46,495 nt of DNA from a virus, in the IMG/VR virus record IMGVR_UViG_3300045988_032792, positions 1 to 46,495 of that record. One strand, 5' to 3'. Both the position numbers and the translations under genes were made by a program. The notes under the pieces were generated by a model. It did not search any database. It saw only the letters and a program-made list of their open reading frames with translations, and was not told where the DNA came from. Below are positions 2,164 to 41,435 of this stretch, one piece after another (within the stretch, counting starts at the first letter, position 1; every line of letters starts with the position of its first letter).

Positions 2164-2441
2164 CTTGCAAGGCGTGGTGAACCTTGTAGGGACTGCTGAT
2201 TAAAAGTTTTTGCTTTCTTTTACATTTCATGTCCTCCTTTCTTTTTTGTGGATGTGCCCTTAATAGAAACAGATTCGAGCGGAATCTGGAGGTTGAAAAG
2301 CGGATGCAATTTCCGGCACATTCATTTACCATCGTGACTGGTGGTAACACCTCCTCGTAAATTAAATAAAATTTCCGCGAAAGTCGGATAGTGGCAGGCA
2401 TAACACGATAAATACCTTGCTAACCCGGGAATCCGGGTTAA

Positions 2442-2513
2442 TGGAATGTAGCTCAGTGGTAGAGCAGTAGCCTTATAAGCTATGTGCCGCAGGTTCGATT
2501 CCTGCCATTCCGA
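2442..2513 (+). tRNA. tRNA-Ile (anticodon UAU)
   Basis: Cloverleaf by eye. Acceptor TGGAATG/CATTCCG (U1-G72 wobble). D arm GCTC-AGTGGTA-GAGC. Anticodon arm GTAGC-CTTATAA-GCTAT. T arm GCAGG-TTCGATT-CCTGC. No encoded CCA. Confidence 0.8.
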
Positions 2514-2578
2514 TTATAGGTTTATCCTTATCCTGTGGACTGGAATTTAATCCAAATAGTCCCGAAAAGGTGTCTTCT

Positions 2579-2668
2579 GGGAAAGTGGCAACTATTGGCA
2601 GTGTTGCGGCGGTCTGTAAAACCGTTCCCTCGTGGTAAACATTATAGGTTCAATTCCTATCTTTCCCA
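2579..2668 (+). tRNA. tRNA-Tyr (anticodon GUA), long variable arm
   Basis: Acceptor GGGAAAG/CTTTCCC. Anticodon arm GCGGT-CTGTAAA-ACCGT. Long extra arm. T arm ATAGG-TTCAATT-CCTAT. Confidence 0.85.
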
Positions 2669-2733
2669 TGATTCAACATGTTGAAAAGGTTAACGCTTAT
2701 CCTGTTAACTGTTGGGCAGTTCGAAAAGCGCAG

Positions 2734-2806
2734 TGAAATATAGCGCAGTTGGTAGAGCAACATCCGCATAGGGTGCGTGTCGGCGGTTCGATTCCGCCTA
2801 TTTCAT
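2734..2806 (+). tRNA. tRNA-like gene with CAU anticodon (Met/Ile2-type) and non-canonical G33
   Basis: Perfect acceptor TGAAATA/TATTTCA. D loop AGTTGGTA. T arm GGCGG-TTCGATT-CCGCC. The anticodon arm ACATC-CGCATAG-GGTGC has an A27-C43 mismatch and G at position 33. Confidence 0.6.
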
Positions 2807-2883
2807 TACCTTGCCAGTGGTCTAACTGGCTTAATCCATTTACCTGCGGCGGCAGGTCAATAAACACGACCAGGAGGATATAT

Positions 2884-3516
2884 ATGCAGAAACTTATTGA
2901 CACATTAAAATCATTTGGAATTGAAATCCCGGAGGATAAACAAGCAGATGTGAAAAAGGCGCTTTCTGAGCATTATAAGAACGCCAAGGAAGTTGCAAAA
3001 ACTCTGTTAAAAGTTGAGGGAGAACGAGATAACTGGAAAGAACGTGCCGAGACAGCAGAGGAAACCTTGAAAGGGTTTGACGGTATCGACCCGGCGAACA
3101 TTCAGACAGAGCTTGCTGGATGGAAGAAGAAGGCTGAGGACGCAGAGAAAGAATTCAATGCGAAGATCTATGACCGCGATTTCTCAGACGCACTTAAAAC
3201 AGCACTTGATGATGTTAAATTTTCCAGTGAGGCTGCAAAGAAGTCAGTCATGGCAGACATCAAGGAAGCAGGATTGAAGCTAAAAGAAGGTAAAATCCTT
3301 GGTCTGAATGACTTGATCGAGCAAATGAAACAGACTGACGCATCCGCTTTTGTAGATGAATCTCAGCAGCAGGCTCAGCAGAATCAGGCAAGATTTACCA
3401 CTCATGTTGGGCAGCAGCAGACACCGGGAAACATGACGAAGAAAGATATTGAAGCAATCAAAGACCCGTCCGAGAGACAGGCTGCAATTGCTCAGAATAT
3501 CCAGTTATTCCAGTGA
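2884..3516 (+). CDS. Phage scaffolding protein
   Basis: ATG 2884 is preceded by caggagga. The track ORF 2749.. reads through tRNA-3 and is rejected. The product is charged and helical (MQKLIDTLKSFGIEIPEDKQ...) and lies directly upstream of the capsid gene. Confidence 0.8.
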   Translation: MQKLIDTLKSFGIEIPEDKQADVKKALSEHYKNAKEVAKTLLKVEGERDNWKERAETAEETLKGFDGIDPANIQTELAGWKKKAEDAEKEFNAKIYDRDFSDALKTALDDVKFSSEAAKKSVMADIKEAGLKLKEGKILGLNDLIEQMKQTDASAFVDESQQQAQQNQARFTTHVGQQQTPGNMTKKDIEAIKDPSERQAAIAQNIQLFQ

Positions 3517-3526
3517 TTTTTTTACA

Positions 3527-3595
3527 CCGACTATACATCAGAGTATAGCCGCTAACCCAATACCTTAACAATTATGGGTAGAAAGGATTTTTTAT
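3527..3595 (+). promoter_or_regulatory. Conserved hairpin leader upstream of major capsid gene (copy A)
   Basis: Stem CGACTATAC/GTATAGCCG, then GCTAACC, then CCTT...AGAAAGGA RBS. Homologous to 7976-8046. Confidence 0.5.
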
Positions 3596-4762
3596 ATGGC
3601 AGCAAAAGCTAATCTTATTATGACAAATGATATCCAGGTCACGGCACGTGAGATTGATTTCGTCACCAGATTCGAAAGAAACTGGGAGCACTTACGTGAG
3701 ATTCTGGGTATCATGAGACCTATCAAAAAACAGCCGGGTGCTGTACTCAAGTCCAAATACGCAGAGGGTACATTACAGAACGGAAATGTTGGCGAGGGCG
3801 AGGAAATCCCTTACAGCAAATTCGTTGTAAAAGAAAAGCCCTATGCAGAAATGACTATTGAGAAGTACGCAAAGGCTGTATCTATCGAAGCAATCAAGGA
3901 TCACGGTTACGAGAACGCCGTTCAAATGACTGATGATGAATTCCTTTTCCAGCTTCAGACCAATGTTACCGAAAGATTTTACAATTATTTGAAAACCGGT
4001 ACCCTCACATTTACAGAGATTACTTTCCAGATGGCTCTGGCAATGGCCAAGGGTCGTGTAGAAAACAAATTCAAGCAGATGCACAGAAATGTGACTGGTG
4101 TCGTTGGATTTGTGAACATTCTGGACGTGTACGAGTATATCGGAGCAGCCGATATTACTATTCAGAACCAGTTCGGATTCCAGTACATGAAAGACTTCCT
4201 GGGATTCAATACAATCTTCCTGTTATCTGACAGCGAAATCCCAAGAGGACAGGTTATCGCTACACCTGTTGAGAACATCGTTCTGTACTATGTAGACCCG
4301 AACGAATCAGACTTTGCAAGAGCAGGACTGGTGTATACCGTTTCCGGCGAAACAAACCTGATTGGATTCCACACACAGGGTAACTACCACACAGCAGTAT
4401 CTGAAGCGTTCGCAATCATGGGACTTACCCTCTTTGCAGAGTACATTGACGCTATTGCTGTTGGAACTATCAACACAACTCAGACACTTGGAACTCTCAC
4501 TGTAAACTCCGCAGCAGGAAGTAAAAGCGGAGATACAAAAGTGACTGTTACTCCGGCAAAAGCAAGCGCAGGAAATGCATATAAGTACAAAGTTGCATCA
4601 TCTGAGACTGCCGTAGACTACGGACAGAATGTGAAGAACTGGAGCGCGTGGGATGGAGAAGCCGACATTACAGCAACAACAGGACAGGTAATCACAGTGG
4701 TTGAGTGTGACAGCACCTATAAAGCACTGAGTGCCGGGCATGCGACTGTAACAGCAAAATGA
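3596..4762 (+). CDS. Major capsid protein with C-terminal Ig-like domain
   Basis: 388-aa ORF after the scaffold gene. C-terminal TLGTLTVNSAAGSKSGDTKVTVTPAKA...GHATVTAK resembles Big_2-type capsid-display domains. Confidence 0.9.
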   Translation: MAAKANLIMTNDIQVTAREIDFVTRFERNWEHLREILGIMRPIKKQPGAVLKSKYAEGTLQNGNVGEGEEIPYSKFVVKEKPYAEMTIEKYAKAVSIEAIKDHGYENAVQMTDDEFLFQLQTNVTERFYNYLKTGTLTFTEITFQMALAMAKGRVENKFKQMHRNVTGVVGFVNILDVYEYIGAADITIQNQFGFQYMKDFLGFNTIFLLSDSEIPRGQVIATPVENIVLYYVDPNESDFARAGLVYTVSGETNLIGFHTQGNYHTAVSEAFAIMGLTLFAEYIDAIAVGTINTTQTLGTLTVNSAAGSKSGDTKVTVTPAKASAGNAYKYKVASSETAVDYGQNVKNWSAWDGEADITATTGQVITVVECDSTYKALSAGHATVTAK

Positions 4763-5444: not shown

Positions 5445-5674
5445 ATATGAAATGCAGACAATGCGGGAAAGAACTTAAACCACATTGGAGCACAGATATT
5501 TGTATTGAGTGCTCAAGAGAAAATATGAAAAAGATATTTAGAAAAAACCCAGAAGTGAAACAGGCATTCCGTGAAACTATTGAAGAACTTAAAAAGCCTG
5601 AAAACATTGCGAAAATGGCTAAAAATACTGCCGGCTTTATGAGTGCTATTCAGGCATTAAGGAGTGATAAATAA
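5441..5674 (+). CDS. Small Zn-ribbon protein
   Basis: 77-aa ORF with CRQCG...CIEC motif. Start overlaps the upstream stop (ATGA). Confidence 0.6.
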   Translation: MNMKCRQCGKELKPHWSTDICIECSRENMKKIFRKNPEVKQAFRETIEELKKPENIAKMAKNTAGFMSAIQALRSDK

Positions 5675-5943
5675 TGGACATTTCAACATTAGGCTCATGT
5701 ATCGCAATCGTTATGATTTGCTACATCGTAGGAATGGGCTGTAAAGCATCAAAAAGAATCTCTGATGAATGGATTCCAGTAATCATGGCGGTTACTGGCG
5801 GGATTCTCGGAGCAGTCGGAATGGGAATTATCCCGGATTTCCCGGCAACGGATTATATCACGGCGGTTGCAGTCGGTATGTTTAATGGATTGTCAGCTAC
5901 CGGCGTGAATCAGATTATTAAGCAAAGTATTATGAAAGAGTGA
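5674..5943 (+). CDS. Holin-like membrane protein (Hol44 / LL-H-type pattern)
   Basis: 89 aa with 2-3 TM segments. Contains WIPVIMAVTGGILG and GLSATGVNQIIKQ, which resemble the phage holin superfamily V signature. Located in the head-tail module, not next to the lysin. Confidence 0.6.
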   Translation: MDISTLGSCIAIVMICYIVGMGCKASKRISDEWIPVIMAVTGGILGAVGMGIIPDFPATDYITAVAVGMFNGLSATGVNQIIKQSIMKE

Positions 5944-6325: not shown

Positions 6326-6967
6326 ATGGCGAATAAAACAACCAGTATAGCCTACGAAAATCTAAACCGCCGTATCTTTGAAGGAGTTGGCGAATACGGT
6401 ATACCACAGATAGAACCAGAGACATTCGAAGGAAACTGCGAATTTGTTGGTTTCAATTACGCCAGAGGAAAATGTAGTAATCCAGAAGAAAAAGCAGTTC
6501 ATTTCTTCTTAGATGATTATCAATTCGATGCACTATGGAGAAATCCAGACAGGTATGCGGATAAGCTGAGCAAATTCCGGTACATTCTAACACCAGATTT
6601 CAGCACTTACACTGACTTCCCTAAAGCTATCCAGATATACAACCATTACCGCAAGCACTGGATAGGTGCATATCTGCAAGAATATGGTTGCCGTGTGATT
6701 CCAACAATCTCATGGAGTACACCGGATTCTTACGAATGGTGTTTTGACGGCGAGCCAGAGAGTGGAACGGTTGCGATTAGTTCAGTTGGATGTATGAACA
6801 GTTTAGGCAAAAAACGCCTATTCTTATCTGGCTATAATGCTATGATTGAACGATTGCATCCAGAAAGTATTATTTTCTACGGAAAAGTACCGGAAGAGTG
6901 CAAAGGTAATATTGTTAGAATTAAAGCGTTCCACGATAGATTTTCAAAAGCAACATGTGAAGGATAG
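6326..6967 (+). CDS. DUF4417 domain protein
   Basis: HFFLDDYQFDALWRNPDRY...LTPDFSTYTDFPKAIQIYNHYRKHWIGAYLQEYGCRVIPTISW matches the remembered DUF4417 consensus. Confidence 0.75.
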   Translation: MANKTTSIAYENLNRRIFEGVGEYGIPQIEPETFEGNCEFVGFNYARGKCSNPEEKAVHFFLDDYQFDALWRNPDRYADKLSKFRYILTPDFSTYTDFPKAIQIYNHYRKHWIGAYLQEYGCRVIPTISWSTPDSYEWCFDGEPESGTVAISSVGCMNSLGKKRLFLSGYNAMIERLHPESIIFYGKVPEECKGNIVRIKAFHDRFSKATCEG

Positions 6968-7448: not shown

Positions 7449-7949
7449 ATGGCAGATAAACCGATCGGCAAGGACGCAGAGGGATATGAGATTCTAACAG
7501 AAGCCATGAAAGCACTTCTGAATCAGTATCCTGGGTTGTATGAAAATGAAACAATCAAATACGAAGAACTGGGAACTGATAGCGGTATCTCATTCTTTGC
7601 GGATACAGGAGCATTAATCTATTCAGAAAAAGAGGATGTATGCGGAATGATGCATCAGGTGTGCCAGTATCCGTTTATCGTGGTATATCGCACAGCTTCC
7701 GAAAAGGAGCGCCAGAAGCTATCTGTTCAGAAGTTTCTGGACAACCTTGGCAAGTGGATTTGCCGGGAACCAGTCACAGTAGATGGCACTGAGACGCGCT
7801 TATCCGCGTTTCCAGAGCTTTCCAGAGGACGAGTGATAAAACGCATCACCAGGGATAATTCCTACGGTACAGAGCCACAGGAGAACGGTGTACAGGACTG
7901 GTTACTTCCGATCACAGTCAAATATGAATATGACTGGGAAAAATGGTGA
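7449..7949 (+). CDS. Putative tail-completion / neck protein
   Basis: 166-aa ORF immediately upstream of the major tail gene. Positional call. Confidence 0.5.
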   Translation: MADKPIGKDAEGYEILTEAMKALLNQYPGLYENETIKYEELGTDSGISFFADTGALIYSEKEDVCGMMHQVCQYPFIVVYRTASEKERQKLSVQKFLDNLGKWICREPVTVDGTETRLSAFPELSRGRVIKRITRDNSYGTEPQENGVQDWLLPITVKYEYDWEKW

Positions 7950-7975
7950 TTGCATCACTTAAATATAACAATTAA

Positions 7976-8046
7976 CCGGCTATCAATCGGAGATAGTCGC
8001 TAACCTACACAGCCTTTTAAAAGTTATAGGCAGAAAGGACATTTCT
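7976..8046 (+). promoter_or_regulatory. Conserved hairpin leader upstream of major tail gene (copy B)
   Basis: Stem CGGCTATC/GATAGTCG, then GCTAACC, then CCTTT...AGAAAGGA RBS. Homologous to 3527-3595, with compensatory stem changes. Confidence 0.5.
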
Positions 8047-8550
8047 ATGGCAGCAGTTACAGGAAAGATTGATCGTAAATACATGGCTCATTTTATCGAT
8101 GCGGGTTCCCTTTGTGGAGGACTGACACCGAAATATGAACGTCTTGGAAAAGATCTGGAAGAGTACAATATAGAACTTAATCCAGATACTGAAACTTCTA
8201 AAAATATTCTTGGAGAATCCACATTTAAACATAATGGCTACGAAGTTTCTTCTGACGCTGATCCGTTCTATGCAGACACTACTTCTGATCTGTTTGGAGC
8301 ATTGCAGAAGATCGTAGACAACAGATACAAAGACGACAACCTAAAGACAAAAGCAGTTGAGGTCCATCTCTGGACAGAAGCCACAGCAGGCAAGTACGAA
8401 GCATACCAGCAGGACTGCTACGTTGTACCGACTTCCTATGGCGGTGATACATCCGGCTATCAGATTCCGTTTACTGTGAACTACGTTGGTGAGCGCGTAA
8501 AAGGAAAATTTGATATCAGTTCTGGCACATTCACAGCTGACAGCGAATAA
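8047..8550 (+). CDS. Major tail (tube) protein
   Basis: 167-aa ORF. Size, position upstream of chaperones and tape measure, and the N-terminus AAVTGKIDRKYMAHFID...YERLGKDLEEY resemble siphovirus tail-tube proteins. Confidence 0.8.
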   Translation: MAAVTGKIDRKYMAHFIDAGSLCGGLTPKYERLGKDLEEYNIELNPDTETSKNILGESTFKHNGYEVSSDADPFYADTTSDLFGALQKIVDNRYKDDNLKTKAVEVHLWTEATAGKYEAYQQDCYVVPTSYGGDTSGYQIPFTVNYVGERVKGKFDISSGTFTADSE

Positions 8551-8576: not shown

Positions 8577-9002
8577 ATGGCAAAAGTAATTAATACCAAA
8601 ATTGATGATGGAGTTCTCATTTTTACATTTACCAACAACGAAGACGAAGTTTTTTCTTCTTTCAAACTGAACCCGACGGATATCAATGTAGCAGCACGCG
8701 CAGAAGAACTGACAGAATATTTTGAGCAGCTCAAAGATTCCATTCAGAAAGTCACTTCCGGTAAAGAGATGGCTGAACTCAATAAACAGATTGAAGACAA
8801 AATCAACTATCTGCTTGGATATGAAGCATCAAAAGACCTGTTCAAAGAGCCGATCACAGCAACCACTGTATTCGGAAATGGTAAGGTATTCGCTTACATT
8901 GTTCTGGATAAGATCGCAGAAGCAATCGCACCGGAAATTGAAAAGAGAAAGAAGAAAATGCAGGCAGCAGTCAATAAGTATACGGAGAAGTATACAAAAT
9001 GA
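8577..9002 (+). CDS. Tail assembly chaperone
   Basis: 141-aa acidic ORF between the tube and tape-measure genes. Confidence 0.65.
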   Translation: MAKVINTKIDDGVLIFTFTNNEDEVFSSFKLNPTDINVAARAEELTEYFEQLKDSIQKVTSGKEMAELNKQIEDKINYLLGYEASKDLFKEPITATTVFGNGKVFAYIVLDKIAEAIAPEIEKRKKKMQAAVNKYTEKYTK

Positions 9003-9571
9003 CCGCCTATGAGCTCCCCACCTCACTAAACATAAGTGGGGTGGATTTTTCTATTAGAACCGATTTTCGCGCAATCATTGATATACTTATTGCTCAGAAC
9101 GATCCAGAGCTGGATGAACAGGCAAAAGCTATTGTTATGCTGAAAATTCTGTATATAGACTGGCAAGATTTACCAGAGAAACATCTTGCAGAAGCGTGTC
9201 AAAAAGCTTGTGAGTTTATCGACTGTGGACAAGCTGACAGTGATCCGAATCGCCCAAAACCACGATTAATGGACTGGGAGCAGGATGGCGATATGGTGAT
9301 CCCTGCTGTCAATAAGGTAGCTCATAAAGAGGTCCGGGCAGTGGAATATATGCACTGGTGGACGTTTTTCGGATACTTTATGGAATCTGGTGAATGCCTT
9401 TTTAATACAGTGGTTGGAATCAGGTCAAAAAAGGCAAAAGGAGAACGTCTGGATAAATGGGAAAAAAAATTCTATCAAGAAAACAAGAACATTATTGATA
9501 TAAAAACACGTCTCAGCGATGAAGAGCAAGCTTATAAAGATAAGCTGAATGAGATGTTGAACCTCAAATAG
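8999..9571 (+). CDS. Gp15-family tail assembly protein
   Basis: 190 aa. LPTSLNISGVDFSIRTDFRAIIDILIA resembles the Phage_Gp15 family. Start overlaps the upstream stop (ATGA). Confidence 0.7.
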   Translation: MTAYELPTSLNISGVDFSIRTDFRAIIDILIAQNDPELDEQAKAIVMLKILYIDWQDLPEKHLAEACQKACEFIDCGQADSDPNRPKPRLMDWEQDGDMVIPAVNKVAHKEVRAVEYMHWWTFFGYFMESGECLFNTVVGIRSKKAKGERLDKWEKKFYQENKNIIDIKTRLSDEEQAYKDKLNEMLNLK

Positions 9572-39803: not shown

Positions 39804-41435
39804 ATGAATCTCACTCCTAAACAGAAAACGTTTGCAGATGAATATATAAAAAACGGTGGGAATGCATCTGACGCCGCAAGGAAAGCTGGATATAAAAATT
39901 ATGAAGTGGAAGGCTATAGATTGATAAGAAATGATAAGGTTTTATCTTATATAGCCGAAAAGCAGGATAAAATCGAGAAACAAAAATGTACCGATATCAT
40001 GTCTCTGGCAGAAATCCAACAGCGCCGTTCCATGATTGCAAGAGGTGAGCTAACGGATTCATTTGGCTTTGCTCCGGACTTCTCCGATCAGCTCAAATCC
40101 ATGAATGATCTGGAAAAGACACTTTCTATAAAAGAAGCCAGAGAAGAGCAGCGGAAAGCAGAAGAAAAAGCCAGATTACAAAGCGAATATCATATTGATC
40201 TGGATATTGTCCCGGACGTATTTCATAAAATGATTAGAGATATCCGGAAAAAGAAACATAGCGAATACATTCTCCCCGGCGGGCGTGGATCCATGAAGTC
40301 ATCGACAATATCATTGATTATACCGGAACTGCTGAAGAATAATTCGAACATGCACGCTCTGATTCTGCGAAAAGTCGGAAACACTATCAAAGATTCTGTT
40401 TATGCTCAGATGAAATGGGCTATTGATAAATTAAATCTAAATGAGGAATTTACGTGCAAGGTATCTCCTATGGAGATTACATATAAGCCTACTGGACAGA
40501 AGATATACTTTCGTGGTGCTGATGATCCATTAAAGATTAAATCCATAAAGCCGGAGTTTGGTTATATCGGCATCGTCTGGTTCGAGGAGCTTGACCAGTT
40601 CGCCGGGCCAGAAGAAATCCGTAATATCCAGCAATCTGCTATCCGAGGTGGAAATGAAGCATATAAGTTCAAATCGTTCAACCCGCCTAGGAGTAAGAAT
40701 AACTGGGCGAATGAATATACGGCAGAAGCAGAAGAAAAGGACGATAGCGCACTGGTTGTACATAGTACATATCTTGATCTTGACATTGAGCAGGAATGGC
40801 TCGGAGATATATTCCTTGCAGATGCTGAACATCTAAAAGAAGTAAATCCAGACGCTTATGACAACGAGTATTTAGGACACGCCAACGGAAATGGTGGAAA
40901 TATCTTTGAATACATCGAAGAAAGAACTATCACAGACGAAGAAATTAGTCACTTTGATAGAATTTATCAAGGTAATGACTGGGGATGGTTCCCGGACCCG
41001 TATGGATTTATCAGACTATATTATGATTCTGCCAGAGAAACGATATATTTCATTGACGAAATATATGAGAACAAGAGATCAAACGAATGGACCGCAAAAG
41101 AAATTAAACGGCGTGGCTACGATGATTACGCGATCACAAGTGATAGTGCAGAACCTAAGTCAGTAAATGATTACAGAGATTTCGGATTGCCTGCTAGACC
41201 AGCAATCAAAGGACCGGGAAGCATCGAATACTCTATGAAGTGGCTGCAAAGAAGAAAGCTTGTGTTTGACCCTGCTAGAACTCCGAACGCAAGGAAAGAG
41301 TTTAAGAAGTATGAATACGAGCGAGACAAAGACGGAAATATCATCAGTGGCTATCCGGATAAGGATAATCATCTGATTGACGCGACCAGATATGCTACAG
41401 AGTCAATGTGGATCAGAAGAGGTAATAGTGCATAA
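39804..41435 (+). CDS. Terminase: small-subunit-like DNA-binding N-terminus fused to PBSX-type large subunit
   Basis: Residues 1-125 are LTPKQKTFADEYIKNGGNASDAARKAGY (TerS-type HTH). They are followed by Walker A GGRGSMKSS, Walker B IVWFEELD, and nuclease motifs GNDWGWFPDP and DNHLIDATRY in one ORF. Confidence 0.88.
   Translation: MNLTPKQKTFADEYIKNGGNASDAARKAGYKNYEVEGYRLIRNDKVLSYIAEKQDKIEKQKCTDIMSLAEIQQRRSMIARGELTDSFGFAPDFSDQLKSMNDLEKTLSIKEAREEQRKAEEKARLQSEYHIDLDIVPDVFHKMIRDIRKKKHSEYILPGGRGSMKSSTISLIIPELLKNNSNMHALILRKVGNTIKDSVYAQMKWAIDKLNLNEEFTCKVSPMEITYKPTGQKIYFRGADDPLKIKSIKPEFGYIGIVWFEELDQFAGPEEIRNIQQSAIRGGNEAYKFKSFNPPRSKNNWANEYTAEAEEKDDSALVVHSTYLDLDIEQEWLGDIFLADAEHLKEVNPDAYDNEYLGHANGNGGNIFEYIEERTITDEEISHFDRIYQGNDWGWFPDPYGFIRLYYDSARETIYFIDEIYENKRSNEWTAKEIKRRGYDDYAITSDSAEPKSVNDYRDFGLPARPAIKGPGSIEYSMKWLQRRKLVFDPARTPNARKEFKKYEYERDKDGNIISGYPDKDNHLIDATRYATESMWIRRGNSA

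Follow-up and report, generated by a model that had tools for sequence, protein, structure and literature searches.

We analysed the 46,495-nucleotide (nt) IMG/VR virus record IMGVR_UViG_3300045988_032792 (called the window below, at its full length) and found that the leaders of its major head (capsid) protein gene and of its major tail (tube) protein gene are homologous copies of one structured element. From 5' to 3' the element consists of an unpaired AC, a hairpin P1 (8-9 base pairs (bp) with a variable loop), a linker CUR, a second helix P2, the Shine-Dalgarno (SD) sequence AGAAAGGA, 6-9 nt and the AUG. It is not particular to the window phage nor to its two genes. On the grounds of sequence comparison we regard it as a well-supported RNA family missing from Rfam, i.e. 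a structured cis-acting leader or intercistronic signal for which a mechanism is proposed below, and it probably sets the output of abundant virion proteins.

Structure and covariation of the two leaders

Both copies lie on the plus strand and consist of the following parts.

3526-3587 (leader to 3595), plus strand: copy A, leader element between the scaffold and major head protein genes
3526..3527, plus strand: conserved unpaired AC of copy A, directly 5' of P1 (from family-wide counts)
3528..3551, plus strand: hairpin P1 of copy A, 3528-3536 paired with 3543-3551, loop 3537-3542; nine pairs, pair 3 being A·C
3552..3581, plus strand: linker CUA and helix P2 of copy A, C3552-G3581, U3553-A3580 and ACCCA 3555-3559 with UGGGU 3575-3579; the loop of 15 nt includes the dispensable CCUUAAC
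3580..3587, plus strand: SD sequence AGAAAGGA of copy A, 8 nt 5' of ATG 3596
7975-8039 (leader to 8046), plus strand: copy B, leader element between the tail-completion and tube genes
7975..7976, plus strand: conserved AC of copy B, 5' of P1 (from the sequence and family counts)
7977..7999, plus strand: hairpin P1 of copy B, 7977-7984 paired with 7992-7999, loop 7985-7991; eight pairs, pair 3 being G·U
8000..8033, plus strand: linker CUA and helix P2 of copy B, C8000-G8033, U8001-A8032 and CCUA 8004-8007 with UAGG 8027-8030; 19-nt loop
8032..8039, plus strand: SD sequence AGAAAGGA of copy B, 7 nt 5' of ATG 8047

Aligned with MAFFT, the two copies are about 80% identical across about 75 nt. Their local alignment score of 45 compares with 13.5 ± 2.2 (maximum 24) for 2000 dinucleotide shuffles and with a best score of 22 among 3853 other phage windows. 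The homology of the two leaders that had been proposed in a preliminary description of the window is thus confirmed. The sequences quoted there are correct as well, GCTAACC beginning 45 nt (A) and 48 nt (B) before the ATG, and the first stem is paired in both copies, as the longer helices of nine and eight pairs listed above. Neither nhmmer, the covariance model R1 described below nor a structural scan found a third copy in the window. A P2-like hairpin at 2416-2445 (plus strand), CUA-ACCCGG-GAAU-CCGGGU before the tRNA-Ile gene, was considered and set aside, as it has no convincing P1 and no SD sequence and receives no R1 score; a site homologous to it was detected in locus L007 by the structural scan.

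The covariation of P1 was assessed on a MAFFT alignment of 45 distinct cores, with slid registers of the partner strand and 500 shuffles as controls. In the nine-pair helix 89% of the cells are paired, compared to 19-50% in the slid registers, double changes are seen in seven of the nine pairs, and none of the 500 shuffles reached the observed values. The first stem is therefore a genuine covarying RNA helix, as its maintained pairing in the two copies had been taken to indicate. Among close relatives of the window (80 loci) the P1 loop varies freely (ATCAGA, ACCAGA, GCTAGA, GACAGA and others), the stem CTATAC/GTATAG is replaced by CTATGC/GCGTAG in three variants with the G·U-containing intermediate CTATGC/GTATAG, and the stem reaches down to its base as CGR...YCG. 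Distant lineages, found via homologues of the tube protein, have wholly different P1 stems at the same place (CGGCGGTAC/GTACCGTTG, CGACTGCC/GGCAGCCG, CGACTCAC/GTGAGCCG, and further TGGTCTGC/GCAGATCA, CGGCCCGC/GCAGGCCG and CGACTTGC/GCAAGCCG). Given an unguided MAFFT alignment of natural sequences, the two window copies among them, RNAalifold recovered P1 together with P2, with compensatory changes in 8 of the 15 pairs.

Further regularities were counted in 157 non-redundant members of the family; these counts are biased by collection, as many of the loci come from patterns requiring GGYAGAAAGGA. Directly 5' of P1, position -2 is A in 145 and position -1 is C in 153 of the 157. The first two pairs of P1 are C-G and G-C across the members, and the third is R·Y, whose geometry is that of a wobble in 37 of 62 distinct stems, with A·C tolerated almost only there. 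TAAC-like sequences occur on both sides of P1 in some variants. The start codon is 15-17 nt past the end of P2 in 140 members, and the second codon is for Ala in 104. The SD sequence AGAAAGGA, which is host-optimal, is the common one of the phage, found 14 times on the plus strand and twice on the minus strand of the window.

The linker after P1 is CUR, where R is A, G or rarely U, and P2 pairs ACCNN with an NNGGY that stands directly 5' of the SD sequence AGAAAGGA. The outer pairs C-G and U-A (CU of the linker with AG of YAG) close the helix around a single bulged purine. Examples of P2 are ACCCA/UGGGU (A), CCUA/UAGG (B), ACCUA/UAGGU, ACCCC/GGGGU and ACCGC/GCGGU; CCUG/CGGG may be compared with CCUA/UGGG, and the copy B variants CUAACU (U·G) and UGGG (U·G) retain pairing. 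In alignments with collapsed loops, whose anchoring by a rule that we set ourselves (GG before RGA) is a caveat on the counts, the two inner pairs run through all four Watson-Crick types plus wobbles: UA16 CG7 UG3 GC1 GU1 and AU18 UA4 CG3 GC1 in a first set, GC46 CG8 UA6 AU5 UG2 GU1 and CG48 UA8 AU5 GC4 UG1 in a broad set. In the broad set 97.9% of these inner pairs are paired, compared to 21-52% in slid registers. The GCTAACC box of the preliminary description is accordingly conserved and fixed in position, but it is not a free single strand, since it comprises the linker CUR and the 5' strand of P2.

The loop of P2 has 8-22 nt, tolerates insertions and deletions and ends in RUUA. It is because of this tolerance that the distance from the GCTAACC box to TTATRGG/SD can vary, from 8 to 18 nt in one lineage, and that CCTTAAC can be lost, as in the natural variants L049 and L040, which retain P2. 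Since this deletion is tolerated in nature and the tract is missing from all short-loop lineages, the pairing of CCTT with the AAGG of the SD sequence, which had been suggested from the two copies, is not a conserved feature, and CCUU was rejected as an anti-SD.

Under symmetric scoring there are 85 G·U against 37 A·C, and among close relatives nearly every single-sided change is wobble-compatible on the plus strand. Every copy with a recognisable downstream gene is oriented in the sense of that gene. Read from these substitutions, the G·U bias, the covariation in both helices and the sense orientation indicate that selection acts on RNA rather than on a DNA palindrome. P1 does not have the form of an intrinsic terminator, being followed by CUAACC and not by U residues, and at either leader no plus-strand terminator is listed.

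Occurrence in other phages

In the lineage of the window (80 loci with capsid proteins 95-98% identical), 76 of the 80 loci have two leaders, the other four being truncated contigs, and around the conserved leaders the spacing of the capsid and tube genes ranges from 3.2 to 5.9 kilobases (kb). A second lineage, that of L089, has two copies in 75 of 80 loci (155 matches). Relatives with capsid proteins 69-88% identical to that of the window have no leader; their scaffold and capsid genes abut, with the SD sequence inside the scaffold gene. These relatives are prophages in metagenome-assembled genomes of Dorea, Lachnospiraceae and other Clostridia. Three lineages with 70% identical tube proteins and the cultured Blautia phage Montmirail, which has a homologous tube gene, are leaderless as well, and their genes abut. 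The existence of close relatives that are leaderless suggests that the element is an add-on that changes ratios and not an essential signal.

Two pattern scans of IMG/VR that were designed to avoid the window lineage gave 66 loci and at least 120 loci. In 150 of the 205 pattern matches a P1 hairpin of 6 bp or more ends exactly at CUR and P2 is fully paired, features that the pattern did not demand. A laxer structural scan in which the SD sequence was not required gave 608 real matches compared to 67 in a block-shuffle control. The covariance model R1, built from the window lineage and near relatives only, gave 56 matches at E ≤ 0.01 in 65 of the independent loci from the patterns, including copies that the patterns had missed. 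Beyond the window, covariance-model search and the pattern scans found the element in many unrelated lineages of uncultured phages. In a metagenome scan there were 125 matches, 80 of them with P1, in samples from human gut, rumen, fermenter and other sources. The uncultured phages of gut, rumen and fermenter samples that carry it probably have Clostridia as hosts.

The genes downstream of the element are unrelated to each other. They encode major head proteins of at least five families (phrog_544, 422, 1328 and two further types), major tail proteins of at least three families (phrog_3099, 158 and 88), tape measures, GH25 endolysins and an accessory Gly/Cys-rich membrane protein (phrog_16490). 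The gene of this last protein (about 280 amino acids, one predicted membrane segment) is among the commonest behind the leader; it was found at L238:3417-4244, between an endolysin-like gene and an integrase, and at 27 other loci. A locus typically has two copies of the element and sometimes three, as in L265, where they precede the capsid, tube and tape-measure genes; the tube and tape-measure genes have copies in L240, L312, L314 and L384. Of 116 cases, 96 have the stop codon of the upstream gene no more than 20 nt from P1, and in 18 the two adjoin as UAAC.

Some copies depart from this common form. At L191:3199-3290 and L097:520-620, P1-CUA-P2 has no SD sequence or start codon and is followed by a hairpin of 9-13 bp and a U tract, upstream of tRNA genes; with this strong intrinsic terminator it forms a unit resembling a small RNA (sRNA). 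On the minus strand of L293 (about 2027-2130) a copy without an SD sequence forms a tandem with a complete one. The capsid leaders of the L089 type (L089-L091, L093, L101-L180; e.g. L090:2981-3110) have an insertion of about 45 nt between P2 and the true SD sequence, which contains an SD-like AGAUGGGAC, an anti-SD GUCCUUAUCU and a duplicated GGGUAGAAAGGAC. In these leaders the SD sequence is predicted to be sequestered in a long hairpin (-34 kcal/mol, z -2.7), and the element is followed by a weak terminator-like hairpin that has a U-rich tract. In the tube leaders of the same type the 3' strand of P2 is the SD sequence itself, AAGGAG.

Two observations concern the surroundings of tube leaders. 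At L030:9145-9725 a divergent tube allele (MIERKYLAHYLD...) replaces the usual MAVTGKID... gene behind the conserved tube leader, which suggests recombination at or beside the leader. In one lineage (L086:6370-6430, L094:880-960, L095:970-1010), 5-6 tandem ACTCGAA(A/T) repeats fill the interval from the tail-completion stop codon to the tube leader.

Possible function of the element

Any mechanism is constrained by the fusion to the SD sequence, the start right after a stop codon, the optional and cassette-like occurrence, the variable stems and the few fixed junction nucleotides. We tentatively favour an intercistronic RNA module that combines selective processing and stabilisation with independent strong initiation and in this way sets subunit stoichiometry. 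The leader would be transcribed within the late polycistronic mRNA and fold as a compact module, which would uncouple translation from that of the low-copy upstream gene. An endonuclease may then cut beside or between the hairpins, which would serve as a processing signal, and P1 and/or P2 would cap the new ends against exonucleases, as in selective RNA processing and stabilisation (SRPS). The module would also supply a strong, independently loaded ribosome-binding site. As a result the mRNA segments of capsid, tube and, in other phages, tape measure would outlive and out-translate their neighbours and so give the stoichiometry of the virion. The steps beyond the RNA fold, namely cleavage, stabilisation and the effect on yield, are ones that we infer.

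How hundreds of capsid and tube subunits and only few of the neighbouring products are made from one late transcript is mostly unexplained beyond a few model phages, and a compact module that is backed by covariation and placed exactly before the high-copy genes makes this question testable. The element may also help annotators to recognise the genes of major capsid, tube and tape-measure proteins in metagenomic phages, and it might be turned into a portable insulator or booster of expression for engineering Clostridia.

In the cip-cel operon of Ruminiclostridium cellulolyticum, it was found experimentally that stem-loops between cistrons determine subunit stoichiometry through processing and stabilisation (PMC10311766). 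As in that operon, our leaders are intergenic stem-loops within one long operon of Clostridia-type organisms, the flanking products are needed in very different amounts, and the hairpins are proposed to act as signals for cleavage as well as caps that protect ends (PMC10311766). Genes on the same strand are found on both sides of the leaders and the helices covary, as expected of an SRPS-type signal. In contrast, SRPS stem-loops are locus-specific and without a common sequence family, whereas the leader is one conserved two-helix design with fixed junction nucleotides that is fused to the SD sequence and reused across genes and phages, and its cleavage is only proposed. The same SRPS logic is known from cggR-gapA and RNase Y in Bacillus, from papBA in Escherichia coli and from the RNase III sites of phage T7. 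The leader can further be compared to the 5' stabilisers of Firmicutes (the aprE leader hairpin, the cryIIIA STAB-SD and the polypurine stabiliser of phage SP82), in which a hairpin and/or a strong SD sequence near the 5' end blocks 5'-to-3' decay and boosts abundant proteins. These stabilisers are at primary 5' ends and have no shared conserved fold, whereas the leader lies within an operon and a 5' end there is a hypothesis only.

Several results weigh against the processing and stabilisation module. Taken singly, the leaders have unremarkable folding energies (z -0.7 to -1.5). The predicted probability of the SD sequence being unpaired was 0.634 in native and 0.620 in motif-shuffled leaders (n = 60, p = 0.47), and an insulator that exposes the SD sequence was rejected on account of this lack of difference. 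No cultured carrier was found, the consensus leader giving nothing in GenBank phages. Among the 125 metagenome matches no host housekeeping gene was identifiable after any of the 80 P1-bearing copies, which one would not expect if the element depended on host RNases and ribosomes alone. The SD-less copies are left unexplained by a role in translation. Finally, a plain protective hairpin could do without the conservation of AC, CUR, R·Y pair 3 and RUUA, which suggests that a specific factor recognises these nucleotides.

The junction nucleotides and the wobble pair, together with the SD-less copies and the capsid leader of the L089 type, keep alive a translational operator, which we consider a serious if somewhat unlikely contender. 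According to this explanation P1-CUR-P2 would bind a trans-acting RNA-binding factor (of phage or host, or the platform of the 30S subunit) near the SD sequence, so that capsid, tube and tape measure are coordinately repressed or activated, with the SD-less copies acting as decoys or titrators. It would account for the conservation of the non-helical AC, CUR, RUUA and YAG, for the wobble geometry and the A·C of P1 pair 3, and for the position of P2 directly against the SD sequence. The sRNA-like copies with a terminator (L191, L097), the tandem copies of L293, the L089-type arrangement of SD-like decoy, anti-SD and true SD sequence 3' of P2, and the fact that the element is seen only in mobile elements are consistent with it as well. 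There is however no candidate protein, the open reading frames (ORFs) in the regulatory region of the window (33.7-41.4 kb) having no RNA-binding domain by Pfam and PHROG, and the carriers are so diverse that a common phage-encoded factor is not obvious. Besides, the loops, which are the usual protein contacts, vary freely, and loop recognition of the CsrA or PyrR type was rejected for this reason. Unlikely, in our estimate, is also a late regulon common to many phages of Clostridia, in which an RNA-binding factor or 30S contact would read AC, the P1 pairs C-G, G-C and R·Y, and CUR. Such a regulon would coordinately gate the translation and/or processing of capsid, tube and tape-measure messages, with the SD-less sRNA-like copies as decoys.

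We consider it quite improbable that the element is a processive antitermination or anti-polarity RNA, i.e. that the nascent two-hairpin RNA modifies RNA polymerase to read through terminators or Rho sites in the manner of the HK022 put RNAs, the Bacillus EAR element or rrn boxB-boxA. The two or three similar copies per genome that are spread along one operon would suit such a role, as would the motif directly upstream of a strong intrinsic terminator in L191 and L097 and the terminator-like hairpin behind the L089-type capsid leader. However, an RNA that modifies the polymerase has no need of a weld to the SD sequence at fixed spacing, terminators are not enriched downstream in the window, and the copies are not sited after promoters. 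The order of P1 and then the box resembles that of rrn boxB-boxA, but the loop of P1 is not conserved and there is no upstream promoter; CGCUAACC may be loosely reminiscent of boxA and appears not to match the boxA consensus.

The probability is similarly low for an element that acts as DNA without any RNA function, be it a small mobile palindromic insertion like REP or MITE, a linker for recombination where modules meet, or a late promoter or operator. Its presence and absence among close relatives, the copy B leader before the divergent tube allele of L030, the variable capsid-tube distance around conserved leaders and the TAAC-like flanks of P1 would be expected from such an element. Hexamers resembling a -10 box are also commoner just upstream of P1 (49 of 157 members compared to 3-8 in coding controls); this stretch is also A/T-rich and contains the stop codon. 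Against this reading stand the compensatory and G·U-biased variation of two helices, the strict sense orientation and the fixed register to the SD sequence and the start codon. Neither leader has a sigma-70-type promoter-like site on the plus strand, and upstream of P1 full -35/-10 matches with 16-18 bp spacing score at least 9 out of 12 in 9 of the 157 members, compared to 2-5 in controls, and at least 10 in none. A two-box promoter was rejected since the box spacing varies and -35/-10 pairs are not clearly enriched; an internal promoter may be present in a subset of the copies. A small riboswitch, with P1/P2 as aptamer for a metabolite or second messenger and the same core joined to differing expression platforms (SD sequence adjacent in most copies, inside P2 as the AAGGAG of L089-type tube leaders, terminator in L191), is very improbable given the few conserved unpaired nucleotides for a pocket, the P2 loop of 8-22 nt, the lack of a gene-function logic joining capsid, tube, tape measure and lysin to a ligand, and the SD sequence that is not sequestered in the common form.

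Of the known phage elements, the closest analogue in form is the SAS of Cluster K mycobacteriophages, a 13-bp consensus GGGATAGGAGCCC located 3-7 bp before the starts of non-structural genes, with its ESAS, a 17-bp inverted repeat whose departures do not support RNA pairing and for which the authors favoured DNA-binding proteins (PMC3203893). Both SAS and our leader are repeated motifs containing a ribosome-binding site a few nt before the starts of genes that belong to different families; the upstream inverted repeat, with a variable spacer, accompanies about half of the SAS, which too are in a single orientation, phage-specific and of unknown function (PMC3203893). Unlike the leader, they have 11-19 copies in a non-structural right arm and an unrelated consensus, whereas in the leader both helices covary as RNA and 2-3 copies precede virion genes. 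As the consensus differs, the genes are structural and the variation preserves RNA pairing, we rejected an identification with SAS/ESAS.

The closest catalogued phage leaders are GP20-a and GP20-b (Rfam RF02991, RF03003; PMC10690425), which are likewise candidate structured leaders of head-morphogenesis genes in uncultured Caudoviricetes. In contrast to these, leader A is downstream of the GP20/scaffold (PF06810) gene, leader B is unrelated to it, and the structure differs. The leader was not assigned to GP20-a/GP20-b, as there is no model match and it is not directly upstream of a PF06810 gene; GP20-b does score in L084, a relative without the motif. With Rfam 15, a scan of the window at gathering thresholds gave only RAGATH-21 and tRNAs, and a permissive scan (E ≤ 10), which took in 300 nt around each copy, yielded nothing beyond noise matches of 11-15 bits to unrelated families. 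In the literature we found no description of the element, with the limit that the 10,006 uncurated candidate RNAs of a large IMG/VR screen, five of which are upstream of one capsid family (PMC10690425), could not be compared.

Genomic context in the window

The window is a siphovirus-like genome of about 46.5 kb from the human gut. Its nearest records are unannotated "Bacteriophage sp." contigs from human faeces with 85-87% identity, its capsid protein is encoded in more than 599 IMG/VR stretches, and homologues bear the names of Dorea, Anaerostipes, Blautia and Lachnospiraceae. The genes around the two leaders are the following.

2885..3516, plus strand: scaffold gene (PF06810/phrog_194), stop codon 11 nt 5' of P1 of copy A
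3596..4762, plus strand: major head protein gene, served by copy A (phrog_544, E 1.3e-44)
7449..7949, plus strand: tail-completion gene (phrog_3266), stop codon 27 nt 5' of P1 of copy B
8047..8550, plus strand: major tail (tube) protein gene, 167 amino acids, served by copy B (phrog_3099)

The true start of the scaffold gene is ATG 2885, which is preceded by an SD sequence; the alternative TTG 2749 overlaps tRNA-Met. Judging by synteny and by the source name of a homologue, the 167-amino-acid ORF at 8047-8550 is the major tail protein: the order is tail completion, this ORF, Gp15-like chaperones and a tape measure of 942 amino acids, and a 79%-identical homologue is named 'Phage major tail' in UniRef. 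The C-terminal amino acids 307-387 of the major head protein match the S-layer SbsC C-terminal (Ig-like) domain (PF18316), which may be a fused decoration domain.

Between the head-morphogenesis and scaffold genes there is an RNA island (2249-2324 and 2442-2807, plus strand) with a RAGATH-21 RNA (Rfam RF03097, 93 bits) and tRNA genes for Ile-TAT, Tyr-GTA and Met-CAT. Relatives have tRNA islands at the equivalent place, where L084 has RAGATH-21 together with a GP20-b RNA. A link between the leaders and RAGATH-21 was rejected, as L084 has the latter but not the motif, while the L086 and L089 loci have the motif but no RAGATH-21. We likewise rejected a pairing between GCUAACC and a phage RNA, GGTTAG being not enriched and missing from RAGATH-21.

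The head-tail connector block between the capsid and tube genes contains a holin-family ORF (5674-5943, plus strand; Hol44, PF16079, E 4.5e-23) and a DUF4417/nuclease-like ORF (6326-6967, plus strand; phrog_940). Just past the point where the two chaperone-like ORFs (8577-9002 and 8999-9571) overlap, a G+C-rich hairpin of 10 bp followed by ATTTTTCT is found at 9018-9044 (plus strand), and it could be an attenuator or a recoding signal. A single ORF of 543 amino acids at 39804-41435 (plus strand) joins a terminase small-subunit domain (amino acids 1-107, PF03592) to the ATPase and nuclease domains of the large subunit. In relatives of the window, ORFs resembling anti-defence proteins are located inside the structural modules at L086:4512-4715 and L089:766-1446, their types being an Acb2/Tad1 hairpin (PF24729) and a Tad2-like protein (PF11195).

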